From assembly GCA_965198065.1 (NCBI GenBank), contig CBDAON010000004.1:1536001-1600000 (forward strand): 64,000 nucleotides of DNA. Reading direction: 5' to 3'. The notes under the pieces are model-generated. The model worked only from the letters and a program-made list of their open reading frames with translations, was not told the DNA's origin and did not search any database. Below, in pieces: positions 2,522 to 60,569 of the stretch. The stretch comes from Longimicrobiales bacterium. Lineage in GTDB: Bacteria > Gemmatimonadota > Gemmatimonadetes > Longimicrobiales > Gaopeijiaceae. A program made the position numbers and the translations under genes. Each line of letters opens with the position of its first letter. Position 1 is the first letter of the stretch.

Positions 2522-2989
2522 ATGATACCACACTTCCCGATCGCGATGCCTCGCCCGACCGATCCCCACGGCTCGGAAGAGGACGAGACCCGACCCACGA
2601 ACGACCGGCCTGCGGACGGGGAAGGCCTCCCGAGAACGCTCAGGATCCGGTTGGGCGGCGAGATCCGGAGCCTCCTACGCAACGGCGCACGCCACAGGGA
2701 TCCGCTGCTCGAGGTGTTCAGCTTGAGTTCGTCCGTCGTGGGTCGGCCCCGTCTCGGCGTTATCGTACCCCGGCACGGCCGGACGATCGTGGAGCGAAAT
2801 CTGCTTCGAAGACGACTCCGCGAGATCGGGCGACGCGATGTCCTGCCACACCTGAGGAGGGAAGGGTGCCATGCCGACGTGCTCGTCCGCTCTCGCCCCG
2901 AGGCGTACGACGCGACCTTCTCCGTCCTGAGGGAAGCGCTCATCCGATCCACGGAGCGACTTTGTTCCGACAGCTCGCCCTCCGCCTGA
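2522..2989 (+). CDS. rnpA: Ribonuclease P protein component
   Basis: [25 protein letters not shown] (RNR motif); position after rpmH. Start codon uncertain (2522 or a later ATG). Confidence 0.9.
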
Positions 2990-3201
2990 TCGACCTGTAC
3001 CGGAAGGGGATCTCGCCGCTCGCTCCCCCGTCGTGCCGGTTCGTTCCGAGCTGCTCCGCGTACGCCCGCGAGGCCGTGGAACGACACGGCGTCGCGCGCG
3101 GAGCATGGCTCTTCGCCAAGCGCTTGTCGCGTTGCCACCCGCTCGGCCGGTACGGATACGACCCGGTACCGCCCGGGGTCGGGAAAGCTCCTGAACGGTG
3201 A
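2962..3201 (+). CDS. yidD: Membrane protein insertion efficiency factor YidD
   Basis: [31 protein letters not shown]...RCHP...YDPVP; likely TTG start at 2962. Confidence 0.93.
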
Positions 3202-4943
3202 GCGTAGAGGCTCGCTTCGTCCTCGCCATCGTGCTCATGATGGCGGTCCTCGTGGGAGGAAATCTCATCTTCCCGCGCGGTTCGAGAGCGCCCGGTGAGG
3301 CTCCGGGGGACAGCGCGAGCGCGGCCGGCGCGGAGGGTGTCGGGGCCGGGGCAACCGGTGGGCCCGCCGATGCGGCTCCTCTACCTACCGCGGGCGCTCC
3401 GGGCCCAACCGATCCGGGCGCCGTCGTCCCTTCGATCGCCGACACGTTGGCGCCTCCTGCCGAAGTGATCCCCGCGGAGCCCGAGAGCGAGATTCGGGTG
3501 GAGGGGCCGCTTTACACGGTGACCTTCTCGAACGTGGGTGGGCGGATCGTTTCGGTCCTCCTCCCCGGGTTCGAGTCCTTCACCCGGGATGGGGCGGTCG
3601 AGCTCATCGAGGAGGGAGACCCGGGCCTTCTGGGCGCCCGGCTCGTCGTGGGAGCAGATACGGTGGACCTGCGTTCGATCGCCATGCAGGCCACGCCGGC
3701 CGAGGGGCTACGGCTCGAAGCGGGTGGAGACTCCGGGGTCCTCTCGTTGCGAGCCACCGATCCGTCGAGCGGAATTGGCTACGAGGTCGCGTACACGTTC
3801 GACCCCGATACATACATCGTGGAAGTGAGCGGGAGCCTAACGGGTTCGGGCCGCGCCATCCTCATGACGGACCTGGGTTGGGGGGTCGCGTACAACGAGG
3901 TGGACGAGTCCACGGAGGCCCGGGAGATGGCCTACGTGGTGAACCACCTCCAGCAGGGGATCCAGGCGACGCAGCTCTCGGACGTGGAGGCCCCCGGGGC
4001 GGAGGACGGTCCGTTCCTGTGGACGGCGAGCAAGAGCCGGTACTTCGTCGTAGGGCTCCTCCCTCCGGCCGGCGGCGCCGGCGAGTACCTGGGAGGGCTG
4101 GTGGCGACGCCCGCTCCCGAGCGCGAGGATCGGGCACGGGTGGCGGTGACCCAGGCTGTCGGGGACCAGGGATTCGACTTCCGGCTGTATGTCGGACCGC
4201 AGGACTACGCCCTGCTCTCCGCCGTGGGAAGCGAGTTCCAGGAGGTGAGCCCCGTCGGTTGGGAATGGCTCCGCCCGGTCCTTCGGCCGATCGTCGCGGC
4301 CATCATGTGGGTGCTCGTGTTCTTCCACGAAAACCTCGCGATCGGCTACGGGTGGGTTCTGATCCTGATGGGCGTGCTCATGCGGATCGTGCTCTTCCCA
4401 CTGAACCACAAGGCCATGCGCGCGCAGCTCAAGAACATGGCCGTGCAGCCGCTCCTGAAGGACATCCAGACGAGGTACAAGGATCAGCCCGAGCGGATGC
4501 AAGCGGAGCTCATGAAGCTCTACAAGGAGCACGGCTTCAATCCGCTCGGGGGATGCTGGCCGATCCTCCTGCCGTGGCCGATCCTCATCGCGCTCTTCTT
4601 CGTCTTTCGGAACACGATCGAGCTCCGAGGCGTCCCCTTCGCCTGGCTTCCGGACCTTGCGGCGAAGGACCCCATCTACGTGCTCCCCCTGCTGCTCGGG
4701 GTCTCCATGTTCGTGATCCAGTGGATCTCGATGCGCGCGGTGGCGGACACGAATCCCCAGATGAAGATGATGCTCTGGTTCATGCCCATCTTCATGGTGG
4801 TGATCTTCGTGAACTTTCCATCGGGGCTGAACCTCTACTACCTGAGCCAGAACGTCGCGACGCTGCCGCAGTCGTGGTGGATCGCCAAGGAGCGGGAGAA
4901 GGTCCAGCTCAAGCAGCCCCCGGCACCGGCGGCGAAACGTTGA
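3198..4943 (+). CDS. yidC: Membrane protein insertase YidC
   Basis: N-terminal TM, periplasmic domain, [32 protein letters not shown] motifs. Confidence 0.97.
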
Positions 4944-50826: not shown

Positions 50827-52171
50827 TCAGGGATCGGGCGGAGCCCTCCGCAGGCATTCGGGGCAGTAGCGCCAGCCGCGCCTCAGGACCCGACCGCAGA
50901 TACACGCCTGCACCCTGCACCATCCGCAGTAGGGGCAGCCCCGACCGTCTCTCGGTACGCTCCCTCCGCAGCGTACGCAGGGAAGCGACTCGCCGGGATC
51001 CTCCCGGAGCACGCGTGCCACCTCGTGAAGCGTCGTGACCCCCTCGGACACCTTCCGCCGGGCGTTCTCGGCCATTGTGGCCATTCCGGCTTCCTCGGCC
51101 AGGCGCCGAAGCTCCCCGCCGGCCGCGCCTCTCGCGATGGCGTCCCGAATGCCCTCCGTGATGGTGAGCACCTGGAAGACCCCGATCCGGCCCCGATATC
51201 CATGATGACAGGCGGGGCACCCGGCGGGGTGCCCGTCGCAGCGGCGGCGGCTGCGCCGGATCAGCCGTTGGGCGACGATGCCCGAGAGCCCTCCGGCCAG
51301 GAGGTGCGGCTAGACCCCCATCTGGAGCAGGCGGGTGATCCCCGAGGGAGCGTCGATCGTGTGGACGGTCGACAGCACGAGGTGGCCCGTGACGGCCGCG
51401 GCCATCGCGATCTCGGCGGTCTCCCGATCGCGGATCTCCCCAATCATGATCACGTCCGGATCCTGCCGAAGCACGGAGCGGAGCGCCGAGGCGAACGTCA
51501 GACCCGAAGCCGGATTCATCTGCACCTGGTTCACGCCGGGGACGCGGTACTCGACCGGGTCCTCCAGCGTGACGACGTTCGAGGCCACGCGGTCGACCTC
51601 GCCGAGGGCGCCGAATAGGGTTGAGCTCTTCCCGCTTCCCGTGGGGCCGGCGGTGAGGACAACGCCCCGTCCGCCGCCAACCAGGGCGCGTACGCGGGAG
51701 AGGTCCTCCGGGGAGAACCCGAGGTCGGAGAGGTTCGCTGGAACCGCGCGCGGGTCGAGGAAGCGTAGGACCGCCTTCTCGCCTCCCTCGGCGGGGAGGG
51801 TCGAGACGCGGATGCTCAGGGACCGCCCCCCGTGAACGAACGGGAGCCCCCCGTCCTGGGGGCGTCGCTTGACCGAGATGTCCATCCCGGCCAGAACCTT
51901 GATGTGGGAGAGCACGGAGGCTCGCGCCCCCACGGGAAGGTCGGCCACCTTCTGGAGGACGCCGTCGATCCGCTCTCGCACGACGAGCTCTCCGGGGCCG
52001 TGCTCGACGTGCAGGTCGCTGGCGCCCGCGTCCACGGCGCGCCGGAGAAGGAGATCCACGACGCGAACCACAGGGGCGCCGGTAGGGTTGTCGTAACGGG
52101 CCTCCGGCTTCGCCGCTGAGGCCGTGCGGTCGGGACCGGAGGGAAGGGCGCGAGCTAGATCGGTCACCTCG
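50827..52171 (-). pseudogene. PilB/GspE ATPase, 3' part (ATPase plus C-terminal zinc ribbons), with nonsense codon
   Basis: ASDLHVE, RIDGVL, PQDG, GPTGSGKSSTL, TLEDPVE, LRQDPDVIMIGEIRD, TGHLVLSTVH; in-frame TAG at 51310-51312 (MGV*PHLL); C-terminal CxxC ribbons. Confidence 0.88.
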
Positions 52172-52180
52172 CTGACCGGG

Positions 52181-52546
52181 ATGGCACCGACCGCAGCCCT
52201 CTCGCCTGGCCGCTTCGGGAAACTGTTTCGTGGCGGCATGAGTGGCGGCGGCATGGGCGCCGGTGTCGTGAGTCCGACGATCGTGGGGAACACCGCGACC
52301 GCCGAGAACCTCTTTCCCGGCGCCGGCGTTCGGGCCGAGGGTCCCGGGGGCGGCGGGTTCTTCGACGGGATGAACGAGCTCGAGAAGGCATTCCTTCTCA
52401 CGGCGGGGCTGGGCACCATAGCCGACATCGGCGGCGGCATCTACGACCGCGTGAAGCAAAGCAAAGACGAGAAGCGGGAGCGCGAGCGAAAGGACCGGGC
52501 TGGCCGGTCCATATCAGCCGTCCTCAGCCGGCCGAGGAGCTACTAG
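52181..52546 (+). CDS. Gly-rich small phage protein (ejection protein-like), possibly 5'-truncated
   Basis: Gly-rich N-part, hydrophobic helix AFLLTAGLGTIADIGGG, charged tail; stop followed by AGGAG RBS of the next gene. Confidence 0.55.
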   Translation: MAPTAALSPGRFGKLFRGGMSGGGMGAGVVSPTIVGNTATAENLFPGAGVRAEGPGGGGFFDGMNELEKAFLLTAGLGTIADIGGGIYDRVKQSKDEKRERERKDRAGRSISAVLSRPRSY

Positions 52547-52549
52547 GAG

Positions 52550-53398
52550 ATGGGTATCGGGGCGGTGCTGGGCGGCGCGGCCGAGGGAGCCGGGCCGGGA
52601 CTCGGCCGGTTCTCGAACGCCCTCCTCCAGGTGATGGGCTCTCAGCAGCAACGCCGCGGCATGGAGGAGCAGCGGGAGTTCAGGGCCTCCGAATCCGCGT
52701 ACCGCCGGCATCGTGACCAGGTCAGCGACGCGGCCAGCCGTGAGGCCCTCGATCTCCAGGAGCGCACCCTCGAGGCGAGGACGAGGGATGCGGACCGGAG
52801 CTTCGCTCATGCTCTCCGAGCGGGTGGTTGGGATTTCGACTATCACCCCGAGGGGGCGCCCGCCCCGGCGTCCTCCATGACGATCGGCCCCCCGCGTCCC
52901 ATCGTCGGCCCCGGGGGAGGACCGGCTGCGGAGCCGGCGGCCGCGGGCGAAGGCATGAAGTTCGAGCTCCCCCCCCGCCAGGGCGTGGGCGACCGAATCT
53001 CGCGCCGGTTCACGGTCGGAGACTACAACCCCGACCAGGACCCAGCCCTGCAACGCCGGCTTCGAGAGATCGAGGCGACCGCGGCCGCGAGGCCCGGGCC
53101 CGCAGGCCCGACGATGTCCGTCGGAGGGATGACGGCGCCGACCACCCCGGCGGGCCGCGCCACCATCGAGGACCACATGAACTGGCGGTCGTCCCTGCCC
53201 GGCCAGACGCCGGCCGGAGCTCGGGACCCCGCGCGGGATCAGCTCCTCATCGGTGGAGCTCTCGCCCGGATGCAGGGTGAAGACGGTGAGATCGACTATC
53301 TGCGCCTCGAGTCCGTCCTCGACGAGCTCCGCCGGCGTCCCGGCGTGACGAACGACGACCTGGACCTGATTCGGGATCGCTTCACCCGGCAGTACTGA
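52550..53398 (+). CDS. Phage hypothetical protein (ejection protein-like)
   Basis: RBS AGGAG, N-terminal MGIGAVLGGAAEG plus Q/R/E coiled coil; TGATG overlap with the next gene. Confidence 0.7.
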   Translation: MGIGAVLGGAAEGAGPGLGRFSNALLQVMGSQQQRRGMEEQREFRASESAYRRHRDQVSDAASREALDLQERTLEARTRDADRSFAHALRAGGWDFDYHPEGAPAPASSMTIGPPRPIVGPGGGPAAEPAAAGEGMKFELPPRQGVGDRISRRFTVGDYNPDQDPALQRRLREIEATAAARPGPAGPTMSVGGMTAPTTPAGRATIEDHMNWRSSLPGQTPAGARDPARDQLLIGGALARMQGEDGEIDYLRLESVLDELRRRPGVTNDDLDLIRDRFTRQY

Positions 53399-56300
53399 TG
53401 GCCTCGCACGACCCTTGGGACGCGCTCTTCGGAGCGGGAGAGCTGGGCGAGCCCGGAGCTCCCACGGCCACCGCTCCTCCCGCCGGCTCTCCGGACCCCT
53501 GGGACGATCTCTTCGGAGCTCCCGCCTACGCCCCGCCGCCGGCCGCGCCCGAAGAGCCCCGCATGTCCATCGGCGCGCGGATCTCCGCGCCGTTCAGAGC
53601 AGGCTGGGAAGGGCTCAGGCGCGGTAGTGTCGCAACGGTGCCCGAGCTCGCGGGCAACGTGCTCGAGCAGTTCGGAGCGGAGGAGCTCGGTGGCCGCATA
53701 GAGGCGGGCGCCGAGCGGCGCGGGTCACGGTTGGCCGAACAGTGGGAGAGCCCGCAGTTCCGTGACGCCCCCGTCTCGTGGCTGGCCGAGAACCTCGGAC
53801 AAGCACTGCCCACGACGGTCCCGTCGATCGCCGGCGCAGCCGTCGGCTCCTTGCTCGGTCCGGCCGGCACGATCGCCGGCGCCGCCATCCCCGCCTACCT
53901 GATGGGTGTCGGCGACATCCGGGGCGAGCTCGAGGACGCGGGCATGGAAGAGGGCGCCGGCATGAGTGCCCTCACCCTGGGGGGAGCCGTCCCCTACGCG
54001 GCGGCCGACATCCTCATGCCCGCCCGTGTCGGGCGCGCGCTGGCGAGCGGCGGGGCCAAACGTGGATTCGGGGCGATGTTCCGCGCCGCGATGCGCGGCG
54101 GCGCCGAGGAGACGTTCGCGGAGGGTGCGCAGTCCCTCGTATCGCAGGGCGCGGCCGCGGTCGGCACCGGCCAGGAGATCGACCTCCGCCGGATCGGTGA
54201 GGAAGCGGTGCGCGGCGGCGCTGCGGGCGTCTTCCTCGGTGGCGGCGGCCAGGCGGCGGCATCCGTGCTCCCTGCCCGCGATACCGCCGACCCGTCAGCA
54301 GACCCGGGGGCCGCCCCCACCGCGCCCCAGAGAGACGAGGACCCGTGGGACTCCCTACCCGGCCACCCCGGCGGTCCCGGAGGCCGTACAGGACGACGTC
54401 GTGGCTCCGCCGGCGGCTCCCGAAACGGAGCTTATGCCAGAGGAGGCCGCACAGAATCTTCCGCCTGTAACTGAATCTGAAACAGAAACAGGCCCTGCAG
54501 TTTCTGAAACGCCCACGTGGGCCCGGGAGTCGATCGTCGACGAGGATCCGGACCAGGCTCCGGCTCCCCCCGAGCGCCGACAGCGTTCGATCTTTCCCGG
54601 GGACGACCGGAAGGTCGAGACCGAGTACACCGTGGTCGAGGCGGACCGGCTCAAGGCCAGTCACACGGCGAATTACGCGCAGCGGGCGCCCGAGGAGTTC
54701 CCGGCCGAGATCCAGGGCCGTGCCTATCACGGGCAGCGCGGCCGCCAGGCGCGCGAGCACACCGAGCAGATCGTGTCCGGCTTCGATCCGGACCGGGCGC
54801 TGGACCGGACGTCGTCGGCTGCCGAGGGCCCGCCGATCGTGACGCCGTCCGGGGTCGCGGTGGCAGGCAACGGCCGGATTATCGCGCAGCAGCGCCTCTA
54901 CGAGAGCGCCCCCGAGAGGGGAACCGAGCTGAAGGGTGCGCTCCAGGAGCGGGCGGCGGACTTCGGGCTCGATCCTGCCCAGGTCGCCGGTATGGAGCGG
55001 CCCGTCCTCGTCCGGCGGATCGTGGACCCCGAGGTGGACGTCACGAACGTCGAGCAGCTCCGCGAGCTCAACGCGAGCTCGGACCAGCCCATCGGGAAGA
55101 CGAAGGATCCGCTCTCGGAGGCGCAGGGGAAGGCGGCGCAGTTCCGCGAAGCCCGGGGGGCTCTCGACCACTTCGCGGCCACGGCCGATCCGGACGCGAC
55201 GATCCGGTCCTACCTGGGGACCGGGTCGGGGCGCGACTTCCTGGGCGAGCTCGTCGACGACGGGGTCATTTCCAAGGGGGAGCGGGCCCGATTCGCGGAC
55301 GCGACGACGGGGGTGGCCACCGAGGAGGGGCGCCAGCTCATCGAGCGGATGTTCTACGTGGCGGCGATCGGGGACCCGGATGTGATCTCGCGCGCGCCGC
55401 CGGCCGTGCTCCGCAAGCTGGACACCTCCCTACCGGCGATCATCCGCGCGGACCGGATCGGTGGCGGCTGGGAGATCGGGCCGCTCGTGAGGGAGTCGCT
55501 CGACCTTCTGGCGGGGGCGAGGGCGGGCGACATGAATCTCGACGACCTGGTCGCTCAGCGCGACTTCACCCGCCCGGCTCCCGACGAGCACGTGGTCGAG
55601 ATGGCCCGGTTCCTCGAGAGCGGGAAGGCCAACGTCCGCGACGCCTTCCGGGCCTACGCGAACCAGGCGGAAGCGTTCACCCGGGGCACCGCGTCCGACG
55701 ATCTCTTCGGGTTCGAGCCGGCGGGCCCCGAGGAGTCTCAGTCCATCTTCGGGAAGGCCGCGCTCGCGCCACGTGGCGATCCGCGTACGGCGCTCAGGCA
55801 GATGCTTTCCTTGCCGGGCGAGCCCTCCCAGGGGTCGGCGGCCGAGCCCGAGCGGATCTTCGGCCGGCGGGAGGAACGGGAACGCCAGGAGTGGGAACGG
55901 CTCGGCGAGGGCCTGTCCGAAGAGGATGCGGCCACCAGAGAGCGGATGTTCCCGTTCATCGCCAAGGCGCGGGAGAACCAGAAGCTGCAGTTCAGCGAGG
56001 AGGAGCTCGCGGCGGCCGCCGGCCGGGAGCAGCGCAGCCCCTACGATTTCCTAGAGACCAGGGCTGCGCGTGAGCGGGCCGCCAACGCTCCGCAGGACAC
56101 GTACCTGATAGACACTCCGGAGCGGCTCACGCTGCGCCGTAAGATCGCCGACCTGCTCTACAACACCCGCATCGCGGCGCGGAAGCGGGAGAAGCGGGCG
56201 TTTGTGGTCATCGGGCCCGCCGGCGCCGGCAAGACCCGGGTCGTCTCCGGCCGGCTCATCGACGAGCATGGCGCCCTCGAGATCGACGCCGACCTGGCCA

Positions 56301-56632
56301 AGCCTCACCTGCCGGAGTACGAGGGCGGCATCAACGCCAAGGGCGTCCACGTCGAGTCTTCCCTGATTGCGGAGGAGCGCGTGATGTCCCAGGCACTGGC
56401 GGCCGGCGACAATATCGTGCTGTCGAAGATCGGTAAGAACACCGCCTCCATGAAACCCATCCTCGACCAGCTCAGGGAAGCCGGGTACGTCACGGATCTC
56501 TACCTGGTCGATCTCGACCCCATGCTGGCCGCCGGTCGGGCGCTGACACGCTTCTACGAGGGTGGCCGGTTCGTCGACCCGGTCTATGGGATCGAGGATG
56601 TCGGCCGGAAGCCCCAGCAGACGTTCGTCGAC

Positions 56633-56661
56633 TTGAAGAGCGATCCGGCTGTCAGTAGATT
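56633..56661 (+). promoter_or_regulatory. Putative internal sigma70 promoter for the nested ORF
   Basis: TTGAAG (56633-56638), 17 bp, TAGATT (56656-56661) in an AT-enriched patch of an otherwise GC3-rich gene. Confidence 0.5.
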
Positions 56662-56723
56662 TACTTGGTTTGACAACGATGTGGAGAGGGGGCAACCGCC
56701 CCGCCTTGTAGAGGAAGGAAAGA

Positions 56724-56891
56724 ATGGCCAAGCGCGATCCGATGGACTTCTCTTTCGCGAAGGGCCTCAAGCGGGAGGACTTCGAGAGGGACGGGATCCT
56801 GGACCTGGAGGGTATGGCCGACGCGGCCGCGGAGCTCGGGAGGAAGGCGGACCGGGCCGACGCGGCGAAGGAGAAGGCGGCACAGCAGTAG
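56724..56891 (+). CDS. Nested overlapping 55-aa protein, candidate antitoxin/immunity protein of the zeta-like domain
   Basis: ATG preceded by GAGGAAGGAAAGA; MAKRDPMDFSFAKGLKREDFERDGILDLEGMADAAAELGRKADRADAAKEKAAQQ*; codons nearly all GC3 in this frame, while the host frame becomes G/R/E low-complexity over the same span. Confidence 0.65.
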   Translation: MAKRDPMDFSFAKGLKREDFERDGILDLEGMADAAAELGRKADRADAAKEKAAQQ

Positions 56892-59800
56892 GTCCGTCCG
56901 CAGTACATCCGCTGGCCCCCACCGCCGAGGTATCCGAGCAGCTCCGTAGCGCCGGCACGTTCGCCGAGGGCACATCGATGGAGGCGCCCAAGGCCACGGC
57001 CATCGTGCGCGATCTCCAGAAGGTCCTGCACGTGCAGCTCGAGGGCCTGAAGGTCTCCGAGGGCAAGCTCCAGAAGCGGGGCATCTTCCGCCGGGCTCTC
57101 GCACAGGTGGACCCCCGGGCCCAGGTCGTACGCGCCGTCTCCCTCTCCGACGTCGCCTCGATCGGCCACGAGTACGGCCACCTCATGCAGAAGCTCCTCC
57201 TGGGCGCCTCGGAGGCCGGGGGGATCGACAACGCCACGCTCGCGCGCCTCCCGGGGGCCGTGCGCGGCGAGCTCCAGGACCTTGCCCAGGGGATCAGCAA
57301 CGAATCGCTCACCGAGGGATGGGCCGAGTTCTGGCGGATCTACCTGGACAACCCCGACACCCTCGGGACCGAGGCGCCCAACGTGCTCAACCACGTCGAG
57401 GGCCTCCTCGAGACCCACCCGGCCGTCAGGAACGCATGGACGGACGCCCGTGAGCAATGGAAGCTGCACCGCGACGCCTCGCCCCAGGCCAGGGTCCGGA
57501 GCCACATATCGGTCGGAGAGGGCGATCCGGACGCGCTCTCGATCGACGGTAAGTGGATGCGGTTCCGAACGAACGTGCTGGACGACTTCGAGGCGATCCG
57601 GAAGGTGGTCGCCCATGTGCGGGAGCGGACCGGCGACGAGCTCACCATCGCGGAGGACGTGGAGACGCTCGCCAGGCTGTCGCGCGGTGCGTCCGGGATC
57701 GCCGACATGTTCATCGGCGAGAAGCAGGGCGACCGCTTCATCGGCGGTCAGGTGGACTTCGGGACGCTCGAGCGGAGGCGGAAGAGCCTGACCGAGATCC
57801 TAGACCCCGTGGAGGACCAGCTCGACGACTTCCGCGATTACATCGTGGCCAGGCGCGCGCAGGAGCTCCACGGACGCGATCTCCTCACCGGGATCCGGGA
57901 CGAGGACGTCAAGTGGACGATCCGTCACCTCGAGGACCGCTACGGCGAGAGCTTCAAGCCGGCCTTCGACGAGCTTCAGGAGTACAACAAGGCGCTGCTT
58001 CGGTTCCTCGTCGACTCGGGTGTGATTTCAGAGGAGACCTTCGACCAGATCGTCGAGGTGAATCAGAATCACGTGCCGTTCTACCGGGTCCGCGAAGGGG
58101 GAGGCGGAGCCCTCGGCGCCGGATCCGGGTTCGGGACGCTCTGGAGCCCGGTCAAGCGGTTCAAGGGCAGCGGCCGGGACATCATCGACCCGCTCGAGAG
58201 CATCCTCAAGAACACGTACAACTACGTCCAGGTCGCACAGAACCAGCGAGTCTCGACCGCCCTCGCGAGCCTGGCCGAGAAGCCGGGCGTCGGCGACCTC
58301 TTCGAGCAGCTCCTCACGCCGATGAAGCGGCAACAATTCACCGTCGGGGAGATCGAGAAGGACCTGAAGGAATCCGTTCCCGGCTACGAGCAGCTCCTCG
58401 AGAAGCTCGAGAAGGCCGGCGTCGACCCGAGCTCGGAGCTCTTCGCCGTCTTCCGGCCGGGTGACTACCACGGGAAGGAGAACACGATCTCCGTCCTGGA
58501 GGAGGGGAAGCGGAAGTGGTTCGAGGTCGACCCCGAGCTCTACAAGGCGCTCGAGGGCCTGAACACCGAACAGCGTGACGCTTGGGTGCGGGCGATGTCC
58601 GCGCCGGCGCGCTGGCTTCGGGCCGGCGCCACGCTCAACCCCGCCTTCATGATCCGTAACTTCATACGCGATCAGCGCATGGCGTTCGTCCAGAGCGAGC
58701 ACGGGTACCGACCCGTCTGGGATTTCGCGCTCGGGGTCTTCGAGGCGGTCAAGAAGGGCGAGACGTACGAACAGTTCATGGTTTCCGGCGCGCACCGCGG
58801 GACCATGCTCGGTCTCGACCGGGATTCGCAGCAGCGCAACCTGCAGAAGCTCTTGAAGAGCGACGGTGTGCCGAACGTCCTCAAGAATCCGCTCGACATC
58901 CTGCGGGCCTTGTCCGAGCTGTCCGAGACGGGCACACGGATGGGCGAGTTCATGCGGGCCCGGGAGAAGCTCGGGGAATCGGGGGAGGCGCTCCAGAAGA
59001 GCGGTGCGGCCGCCCGGGAGGTGTCAGTCGACTTCGCCAGGCACGGTGCTAAGACGACCGCGCTTAGGGGGATGGCGGCTTTCTGGAACGCGCGGATGCA
59101 GGGCTACGACCGTTTGGGGCGCGCGGTGAAGAAGAGTCCCGTGAAGTTCATGGCGACGACGTTCGGTGCGGTGACGCTCCCCTCCATGCTCCTCTACTTC
59201 GTCAACCGTGACGAGCCGGAGTTTTGGGAGATTCCGCAGTGGCGGCGCGATCTCTTCGACATGGTGAAGGTGAACGACACCTGGCTCAGCATCCCGAAGC
59301 CGTTCGAGCTGGGGCTCTTGTTCGGGACGCTCCCGGTCCGCGTGCTCTCGGCGATCGAGAACACTCCCGGCGGTTCGGAGGAGCTCCGGAGGTTCTTCGA
59401 GGACACGCTCTCGAAGGAGCTGACCTCGATCGGGCCGGCGCCGACGGCCGTCATGCCGCTCATCGAGAACCTCACGAACTGGAGCTTTTTCCTCCAGCGG
59501 CCGATCGTGCCACGGAGCGAGGAGAACGTCCGCGACCGCGAGCAGGGGAACGAGCGGACTTCCGAGATCGCGAAGCTCCTGGCCCGGTGGTCGCCGGGCC
59601 CCGAGGGGATTTCTCCCCGCTCGATCGACAACCTCCTCTATTCGTGGACGGGAGGACTCGGCCGCCTCGCAAGCCGTGGGGTGGACCTGGGCGTCGACGT
59701 CGCTACGGGGAAGCCCCCCGGGCCGACCAGGCAGGCTGCGGACTATCCGGGGATCCGGGGCGTCACCATCCGCACACCCGGGCTCTCGTCAGAGTCCGTC

Positions 59801-59938
59801 GAGCGCCTCTACCGGGAGCTCGCGAAGGCTCGCACCGCTCGGGCCACGCTGCGCCACTTCGAGCGCGAGGGCCGCACGGAGGACTTCGAGCGTGAGGCCA
59901 GGGACCCCGAACAGGCGGAGCTCCGGGCACAGGCAACC

Positions 59939-60418
59939 CCTCGTGTACGCTGCCCGGAGGCCCTCCTGGAGCGCCGACGGCGTAGCTACGGCCGCTGCGA
60001 CCCTACGGCCGCTCTGGAACTGGAGGTCGTCCACAGTCGAGAGGTCGAGCGGGTCCTCCATGGCGACGAGGAGCGAGCGCCCGGTGAGGCGCAGGGGGAG
60101 TACCCTTCGCCTGCGCGCGAACCCGGCGTTGACGAGCCTCAAGGCTTCGGCCCCGGGCCGGAGGGGCCCGGCCTCGAACGGAAGCCCGAGCTGCCTGGCC
60201 AGGGTGCTGGCGACCTCGTCCTCGCCAGCGACCCCGAGCCGGGCAATCACCGCGCCGAGCCGCTCTCCGGATTCGCGTTGCGCCGCGAGCGCCCGCTCGA
60301 GGTCGCGGGGCCGGAGTGTCCCCTCCTCGACGAGGAGCGCGCCCAGCACGCGCGTTTTCGAGTCGGCGGCGTCGGGGAGGGCGGTCCTGGGGGCCACGCC
60401 GGACGATAAGGACGCCAC
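59939..60418 (-). pseudogene. PilB/GspE ATPase, 5' part (MshEN / T2SSE_N domain)
   Basis: VLGALLVEEGTL...LERALAAQRESGERLGAVIARLG...LARQLG...VLPL...LVAMEDPLD..DDLQF.SGR..V..AT...LRAAY. Confidence 0.85.
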
Positions 60419-60569
60419 CGGAGCGGAAGGATGGGTCGATGGGTCGGTGGCGCTCCGGTCGGCGGTGTCCCCTGGGGGCGACGAGCCGGCTACGCCCGTC
60501 CAATCTCCGCCAGAACGCCGTCCCGACGTCGCCGCCCTGGAGTGGAGCTCGCGGGGCCGTCCGAGGGTG

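Follow-up and report, generated by a model that had tools for sequence, protein, structure and literature searches.

Organization of the locus

The window, i.e., the whole stretch of 64,000 nucleotides that was analyzed (G000:C4:1536001-1600000), contains a phage polyvalent protein gene located within an interrupted host gene. The following features of the window are referred to below.

51310-52190, - strand: C-terminal half (T2SSE) of the interrupted gspE/pilB gene, assigned by Pfam and by comparison with the same-genus genome G001
52124-53398, + strand: two small phage-like ORFs (52124-52546 and 52550-53398), the second with a weak match to a DNA-ejection pilot protein (phrog_11693, E 0.028)
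53398-59940, + strand: polyvalent protein gene with ddrB-ParB (54602-55021), zeta and LPD38 (59216-59752) domains, a frameshift near 54360 and a 3' end lost near 59940
56020-56863, + strand: exchangeable cassette (kinase and nested ORF), replaced in frame by another allele in another strain
56078-56719, + strand: zeta-toxin-like P-loop kinase domain with Walker A motif GPAGAGKT and the catalytic D in IDAD (PF06414, E 5.5e-11)
56633-56661, + strand: sigma70-like motif TTGAAG-17-TAGATT, a predicted internal promoter inside the zeta C-terminal codons
56711-56718, + strand: Shine-Dalgarno (SD) sequence GAGGAAGG, within main-frame E-E-G codons, anti-SD duplex -8.2 kcal/mol
56724-56891, + strand: nested +1-frame gene of 55 aa, marked by a codon flip and with homologs 3' of zeta C-termini; candidate partner or inhibitor of the zeta-like kinase
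59940-60418, - strand: N-terminal half (MshEN) of the host gspE/pilB ATPase gene, joined to the C-half in G001

In addition to the zeta domain, the polyvalent frame matches LPD38 (PF18857, E 2.9e-35) and ddrB-ParB (PF18763, E 5.6e-18). The gene truly begins at 53398 and not at 53966, where the long plus-strand frame (53966-60409) opens, and a one-base frameshift at 54355-54362 splits the N-terminal ORF starting at 53398 from the main frame. X1 contigs agree with the window at this point, the strains of runs X3 and X4 have one base fewer, and the allele P0004 is an intact polyvalent protein of 2349 aa with no frameshift. Past approximately 59940 the frame continues through antisense host pilB to 60409, so that the C-terminus of the polyvalent protein is missing from this copy. 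A second strain-variable patch of low GC3 is located at 54420-54512, where 91 nt are replaced by 103 nt in X3 and X4.

The host gspE/pilB gene (51310-60418, - strand) is split by a 7.7-kb phage fragment (52190-59940) and is uninterrupted in G001. Misassembly at the two junctions was ruled out: the X1 contigs, possibly from the source sample, are identical across both, and the X3 strain, from a second study, carries the same insertion, in which the phage part is a few percent divergent. The two junctions share no attachment-type repeat of more than 7 nt, no integrase was found in the 7.7-kb fragment, and Terminase_6N was not found in the G000 genome, which is 88% complete. Weak PHROG hints within this same fragment may point to a virion or late-gene context for the window copy. 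It can be concluded from the frameshift, the truncation, the location within pilB and the failure to find Terminase_6N that the window copy is a decayed phage fragment, which may therefore itself be silent. The protection of lysogens that the preliminary description of this DNA attributed to the pair consequently cannot apply as such to this copy.

The zeta-like kinase domain

The kinase domain was modelled by AF2 with a pLDDT of 91.9, and the closest solved folds in Foldseek were zeta (1gvn), AvrRxo1 (4z8q) and PezT (2p5t), with E about 1e-8, TM 0.68-0.75 and 17-21% identity. The extent given earlier for the domain, about 56190-56700, required adjustment, since the Pfam match covers 56177-56587 and the folded domain 56078-56719; the nested ATG indeed follows the domain end, by 7 nt. 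Zeta residue numbers were mapped onto the kinase by alignment to 1gvn. Among 69 representatives the Walker A lysine is kept in all and the catalytic aspartate in 68. The site of zeta Thr118 is occupied by Ile in the window and by Val or Ile in 60/69 relatives, Thr being present in 7/69; the Arg120 site is Lys in the window, and the Glu116 site is Pro in 59 of the 69 representatives. According to the accessible text of PMC3062530, Thr118 contacts UNAG and a Thr-to-Val PezT is non-toxic. As judged from the sequence, the domain thus resembles a small-molecule kinase of the zeta family yet appears to fall outside the UNAG-kinase toxin-antitoxin family. In comparison with epsilon/zeta, the replacement of Thr118 by Ile or Val and of Glu116 by Ser or Pro indicates that the substrate may differ from UDP-GlcNAc. 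The mechanism originally put forward, phosphorylation of UDP-GlcNAc, is therefore not retained, and the presence of the pair in archaeal viruses also speaks against it.

The nested reading frame behind the kinase

Relative to the long plus-strand frame, the ORF at 56724-56891 is in frame +1. Its coordinates, its 55 codons and the sequence of its product were exact in the preliminary description, as were its strong ribosome-binding site and its GC3-rich codons. Read in the +1 frame, 51/55 codons of the span end in G or C (GC3); read in the main frame, 23/55 do. Outside the span, main-frame GC3 is 0.90 (1709 codons), and the drop over the span has a binomial p of 2e-18 (z -7.9); +1-frame GC3 outside is 0.69 and its rise over the span has p 2e-5. 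The openness of the +1 frame in the window is predicted with probability 0.97 from the linker residues alone and is therefore uninformative by itself, and the collapse of main-frame codon preference is the informative signal at this locus. A second +1 ATG of equal SD strength occurs within the gene at 57615 and opens 58 codons, over which main-frame GC3 remains 0.95; the codon flip is therefore specific to 56724.

That a disordered G/R/E linker is free of +1 stops through composition alone would suffice for the open frame. Composition cannot explain the drop in GC3, however, nor the excess of SD-bearing ATG starts, the shifted substitution pattern and the homologous peptides behind a closed main frame that are presented below, and chance is accordingly a hardly credible origin.

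Compared with 40 synonymous recodings of the same codons, the promoter-like motif upstream scores z about 7, and it is retained with an identical spacer in two homologous cassettes, that of L003 and one of those in L004. It matches only 8 of 12 consensus letters, for which reason a standard promoter scan of 52000-60500 omits it (0 sites listed), and it is absent from three other homologous copies. The motif reported earlier is present as described.

No Pfam match was obtained for the nested peptide at E<=0.1, the best PHROG was phrog_6724 at E 0.064, a search of the ESM Atlas with the peptide returned no usable match, and a single-sequence scan of viral sequences returned none. Taking all coding signals together, the nested gene itself is very probably genuine.

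Conservation among zeta-domain genes

A total of 198 kinase loci from viral, genome and metagenome contigs formed 112 clusters at 70% identity, of which 11 were dropped because the domain end or flank was incomplete. Among the 101 representatives kept, 23 end at most 45 codons past the domain and 78 read through, so that the domain is internal as in the window; 76 of these 78, with a host frame of at least 300 codons, made up the tested set. In 61/76 clusters no stop interrupts the +1 frame over 30 codons, against 37.5 expected under synonymous recoding; for the +2 frame the count is 16/76 against 16.8. The preliminary description had proposed looking for an alternate-frame ORF with a ribosome-binding site behind the zeta domain of homologs, and such ORFs are indeed widespread: a +1 ATG whose frame extends beyond +75 nt is found at the zeta end in 63 clusters (25.2 expected), and in 50 (11.0 expected) it is preceded by an SD of -5 kcal/mol or better, a combination seen in 54/1609 control windows.

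The nested start is located 62 or 56 nt ahead of the domain end in 47 of the 63 clusters. Codon choice at the nested ATG is T-ending in a ratio of 55:22 against a background of 480:282 (p 0.17), and the ATG at -62/-56 arises in part from conserved D-G/Y-x codons. Of the 23 zeta-terminal genes, 7 have the same -62/-56 +1 ORF as an ordinary overlapping downstream gene. In four others (L192, L195, L198 and L203) the zeta-terminal gene is followed by a different family of small genes with a CxxC...C..IP motif, an alternative partner family.

It can be observed that the +1 frame is frequently open already 60-80 nt before the zeta end, as would be expected if programmed frameshifting at the end of the kinase yielded a short isoform of the giant protein with a helical tail. 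Such an isoform would have no need of the dedicated SD and ATG found in 50/76 clusters or of promoter-like motifs upstream of them, and in the window a stop interrupts the +1 frame 8 nt ahead of the zeta end, and the nested ORF has a start of its own. Frameshifting is therefore very improbable as an account of the locus.

Upstream of the 50 SD-bearing nested starts, the promoter-like score, calculated with approximate sigma-70 weights, has a median z of 1.13 against 0.24 in 49 control windows (p 6e-4); since the clusters share ancestry and are not independent, this and the other p-values among them overstate significance. In L084 a perfect TTGACA-17-TATAAT precedes the nested start. On this comparative evidence an internal promoter is likely, and the independent transcription proposed for the small gene can be maintained as a prediction.

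Across 17 close pairs, the substitutions at codon positions 1/2/3 of the main frame number 67/30/49 in the overlap and 105/59/301 in the zeta core (p 2e-10); within the overlap the most variable position moves to the +1 wobble position. Frame-specific selection, a further point proposed for examination, is supported as far as this shift is concerned; purifying selection on the peptides themselves is weak, with 65 of 108 changed codons altering the residue, indicating fast evolution. By the fixed rule 13/76 clusters have no nested ATG-ORF, and about 8 of these look truly devoid of one, their kinase motifs being intact.

The window peptide has no significant similarity to peptides of distant clades, since 99/500 and 458/500 shuffles score equally high. 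The claim for the family is therefore positional and does not concern one protein family. A single shared peptide motif family was considered and dropped because profile tests failed to join the window peptide to those of distant clades; four weak A3 matches (L209-L212, E 0.001-0.008) have no zeta domain upstream and were judged to be due to chance. Eleven annotated phage records contain the domain, and three were examined. The cultured haloarchaeal viruses HVTV-1 and HCTV-1 carry homologous, acidic +1 ORFs of 39 aa (22/34 identical) that are unannotated, at 69727-69846 of KC117377.1 and 72114-72233 of KC292029.1, respectively, and cyanophage P-SS2 has no nested ATG-ORF after its zeta-like domain.

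Exchange of the cassette and orphan copies

The kinase and the nested gene were found to be exchanged together. An X3 contig equals the window as far as 56019 and resumes the match at 56864; between these points 871 other letters replace 844, in frame, with a single 52-nt island shared with the window. P0004 is 89-95% identical to the window protein over the aligned halves and 57% in the zeta domain, and has a different linker that is 10 residues longer; reading back from the protein, its +1 frame probably holds another small ORF. The peptides diverge along with the kinase allele, as cognate immunity proteins diverge with their toxins.

Orphan copies are present elsewhere. A second locus of the same genome (C4:1486196-1487350, i.e., L004:1235-2380) carries orphan zeta ends with peptides. 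The TGA that stops one of these zeta ends overlaps the ATG with which a homologous peptide begins; behind another lies a visibly degenerate homolog. The nested homolog of G004 lies in an open main frame and is accompanied by a second, broken copy. In G540 the zeta frame closes after 34 codons and the peptide frame remains open. The peptides of these three loci are 35-36% identical to the window peptide, and identity in the +1 frame exceeds that in the main frame in 7/7 pairs, in alignments that were built on the +1 peptides; the local score favours the main frame in 1/7. The movement of both parts as one in-frame cassette, anticipated in the preliminary description, is thus borne out by the X3 replacement and by the orphan cassettes of G000, G004 and G540.

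The L004 array also includes a natural fusion of 257 codons between a peptide and a zeta domain. The single-chain fold of this fusion (L004:1309-2079), in which the peptide precedes a non-cognate zeta domain, gave a peptide pLDDT of 59-71 and a pTM of 0.75, with no control and with three misaligned rows, an uninformative result. Judging from the translations, the array truncates what is presumably a DUF1501-like gene and precedes an ORF that we take to be a Cas3-like helicase. The G004 remnant (L003:390-951 and 2629-3259; G004:C13) lies between what we take, from the translations, to be two RelB/DinJ-YafQ-like toxin-antitoxin pairs and an integrase fragment.

The degenerate orphan, the weak purifying selection and the position of the window copy in a frameshifted, truncated fragment would also fit a fossil, i.e., a captured toxin-antitoxin cassette whose old antitoxin frame is still undecayed and has no present function. 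The start, the SD, the open frame and the promoter-like motif are nevertheless kept in archaeal viruses, in genomes whose GC ranges over 30-70%, and across kinases that share only 30-45% identity, and a neutral linker would soon lose them. A fossil is thus improbable.

Proposed role of the nested gene

The sequence signals, their conservation throughout the family and the exchange of the cassette are established. The reading preferred here, with a probability of about 0.6, is that the 55-codon frame is a conserved nested gene that encodes the cognate inhibitor (immunity protein) of the upstream zeta-like kinase.

A nested gene that is expressed but is not an antitoxin would fit all of the coding evidence equally well. 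Its product might serve the giant protein as a chaperone or as a packaging or processing factor, might activate the kinase, or might be a small effector in its own right that moves together with the domain. Several clusters have an intact kinase and no nested ORF, the kinase is without the residue required for PezT toxicity, and nested +1 ORFs are found elsewhere in polyvalent genes as well; as these lie away from zeta in some genes, nesting need not mean immunity. Such a partner is nonetheless considered unlikely, since the strict position 3' of a toxin-family domain, the free-standing downstream versions behind C-terminal zeta domains, and the co-exchange with the kinase allele together with orphan cassettes are all hallmarks of toxin-immunity pairs.

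If the nested gene encodes an inhibitor, giant virion polyvalent genes would have taken up, in their interior, a kinase and small-gene module of the polymorphic-toxin type, a module that other phages still carry with the kinase at the C-terminus. Once the kinase stop codon was lost, the giant frame would have continued across the small gene, reading it as a G/R/E-rich linker, and the frame, SD and promoter proper to the small gene would have been retained. In the lysogen or the infected cell, a short internal transcript would then yield a small helical protein that restrains the kinase during synthesis and packaging of the giant protein; once ejected, the kinase would become active in the next cell. 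Transcription, translation, binding, toxicity and substrate all belong to this proposal.

A broader reading of these results is offered tentatively, at slightly less than even odds. Bacterial and archaeal viruses may keep complete toxin-immunity modules in giant virion proteins by double coding, with the toxin domain fused in frame and the immunity gene placed in the +1 frame of an apparent linker, its own promoter and RBS lying in the last codons of the toxin. In that case, many of the 'disordered linkers' in polyvalent proteins would correspond to immunity genes that annotation has missed and that point to the toxic domains, and this clade of kinases would have a new substrate.

Comparison with known systems

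Nested genes on the same strand are exemplified by lambda Rz1 in Rz, phiX174 E in D, and B. subtilis comS in srfAB, all of which resemble the present case as out-of-frame genes with their own translation signals inside a larger gene. None of Rz1, E and comS is known to be the partner of a toxin domain in a multidomain virion effector or to move as an exchangeable cassette. In Rpn systems the toxin gene itself encodes a small inhibitor, expressed from a promoter and RBS within the gene (Zhong et al. 2023, PMC10327210, accessible sections). The Rpn product, as far as these sections describe it, is the same-frame C-terminal part of the toxin, whereas here the sequence is different, the frame is +1 and the gene is viral.

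The analysis of polyvalent proteins by Iyer et al. (2017, PMC5512222), in the part accessible, names zeta-like kinases and describes orphan cassettes near the primary locus. The same domain set (zeta-toxin-like kinase, ddrB-ParB and LPD38) is shared with the window, and the phage late-gene context may be. That part assumes phosphorylation of cell-wall precursors and makes no mention of a nested or overlapping gene. For MuF polymorphic toxins, Jamet et al. (2017, PMC5576092, portions available) report a small ORF behind 89.4% of 191 toxin genes. As in that system, a toxin-like domain of a presumed virion protein is followed directly 3' by a small ORF, in the classic position of immunity, and the allelic exchange of domain plus small gene and the orphan cassettes of MuF-type modules are both found here. 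The difference is that MuF toxins are C-terminal and followed by a separate small gene, whereas the present domain is internal and its small gene is nested out of frame.

With epsilon/zeta, PezAT and EzeT the kinase shares the fold, the Walker A Lys, the catalytic Asp67, the lid arginines and a small partner, as can be judged from the accessible text of PMC3062530 and PMC10532202. An antitoxin of the epsilon/PezA type, which the preliminary description had implied, is not supported: the peptide has no sequence similarity to epsilon or PezA and no significant Pfam or PHROG match, and the partner gene is 3' and nested, not upstream. AvrRxo1/ORF2 is equally close to the kinase in fold and also includes a small partner protein; AvrRxo1 reportedly phosphorylates NAD.

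A full-text literature search, in which subscription papers were thinly covered and phrase matching was brittle, returned no description of a gene lying out of frame behind a zeta domain or within a polyvalent gene. Immunity ORFs downstream of toxins, intragenic antitoxins and nested genes are familiar one by one; their combination appears to be new. In the passages available, the role of viral zeta toxins is stated to be unknown (PMC4284463), and many zeta homologs are described as 'orphans' when partners are sought upstream (PMC10532202). A nested 3' partner is a concrete candidate for such orphans, including those of two cultured viruses, and explains how a toxin-like domain can become internal to a virion protein of several domains and still keep the small gene that accompanies it. 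Furthermore, annotation pipelines systematically overlook such genes, as is apparent from HVTV-1 and HCTV-1, where none is annotated.

Further nested frames in polyvalent genes

Other +1 ORFs were observed in the same genes. Four clusters share a second conserved one, of 61-77 aa and with a strong SD, some 1.1 kb ahead of the zeta end, and no Pfam match was obtained for the two of the four that were scanned. Its positions are as follows.

L138:2417-2605: second conserved upstream +1 ORF
L141:2432-2662: second conserved upstream +1 ORF
L144:2405-2593: second conserved upstream +1 ORF
L191:2480-2662: second conserved upstream +1 ORF

Nested +1 ORFs with a strong SD and a codon anomaly are also located at L084:4484-4834 (117 aa) and L167:3881-4267 (129 aa); the product of the former, which has no Pfam match, presumably resembles TnpV. 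A further +1 ORF of 46 aa lies late in HVTV-1 gp115 (L216:6667-6807), with an SD of -6.4 and a GC3 of 0.72 against 0.35 in the main frame.
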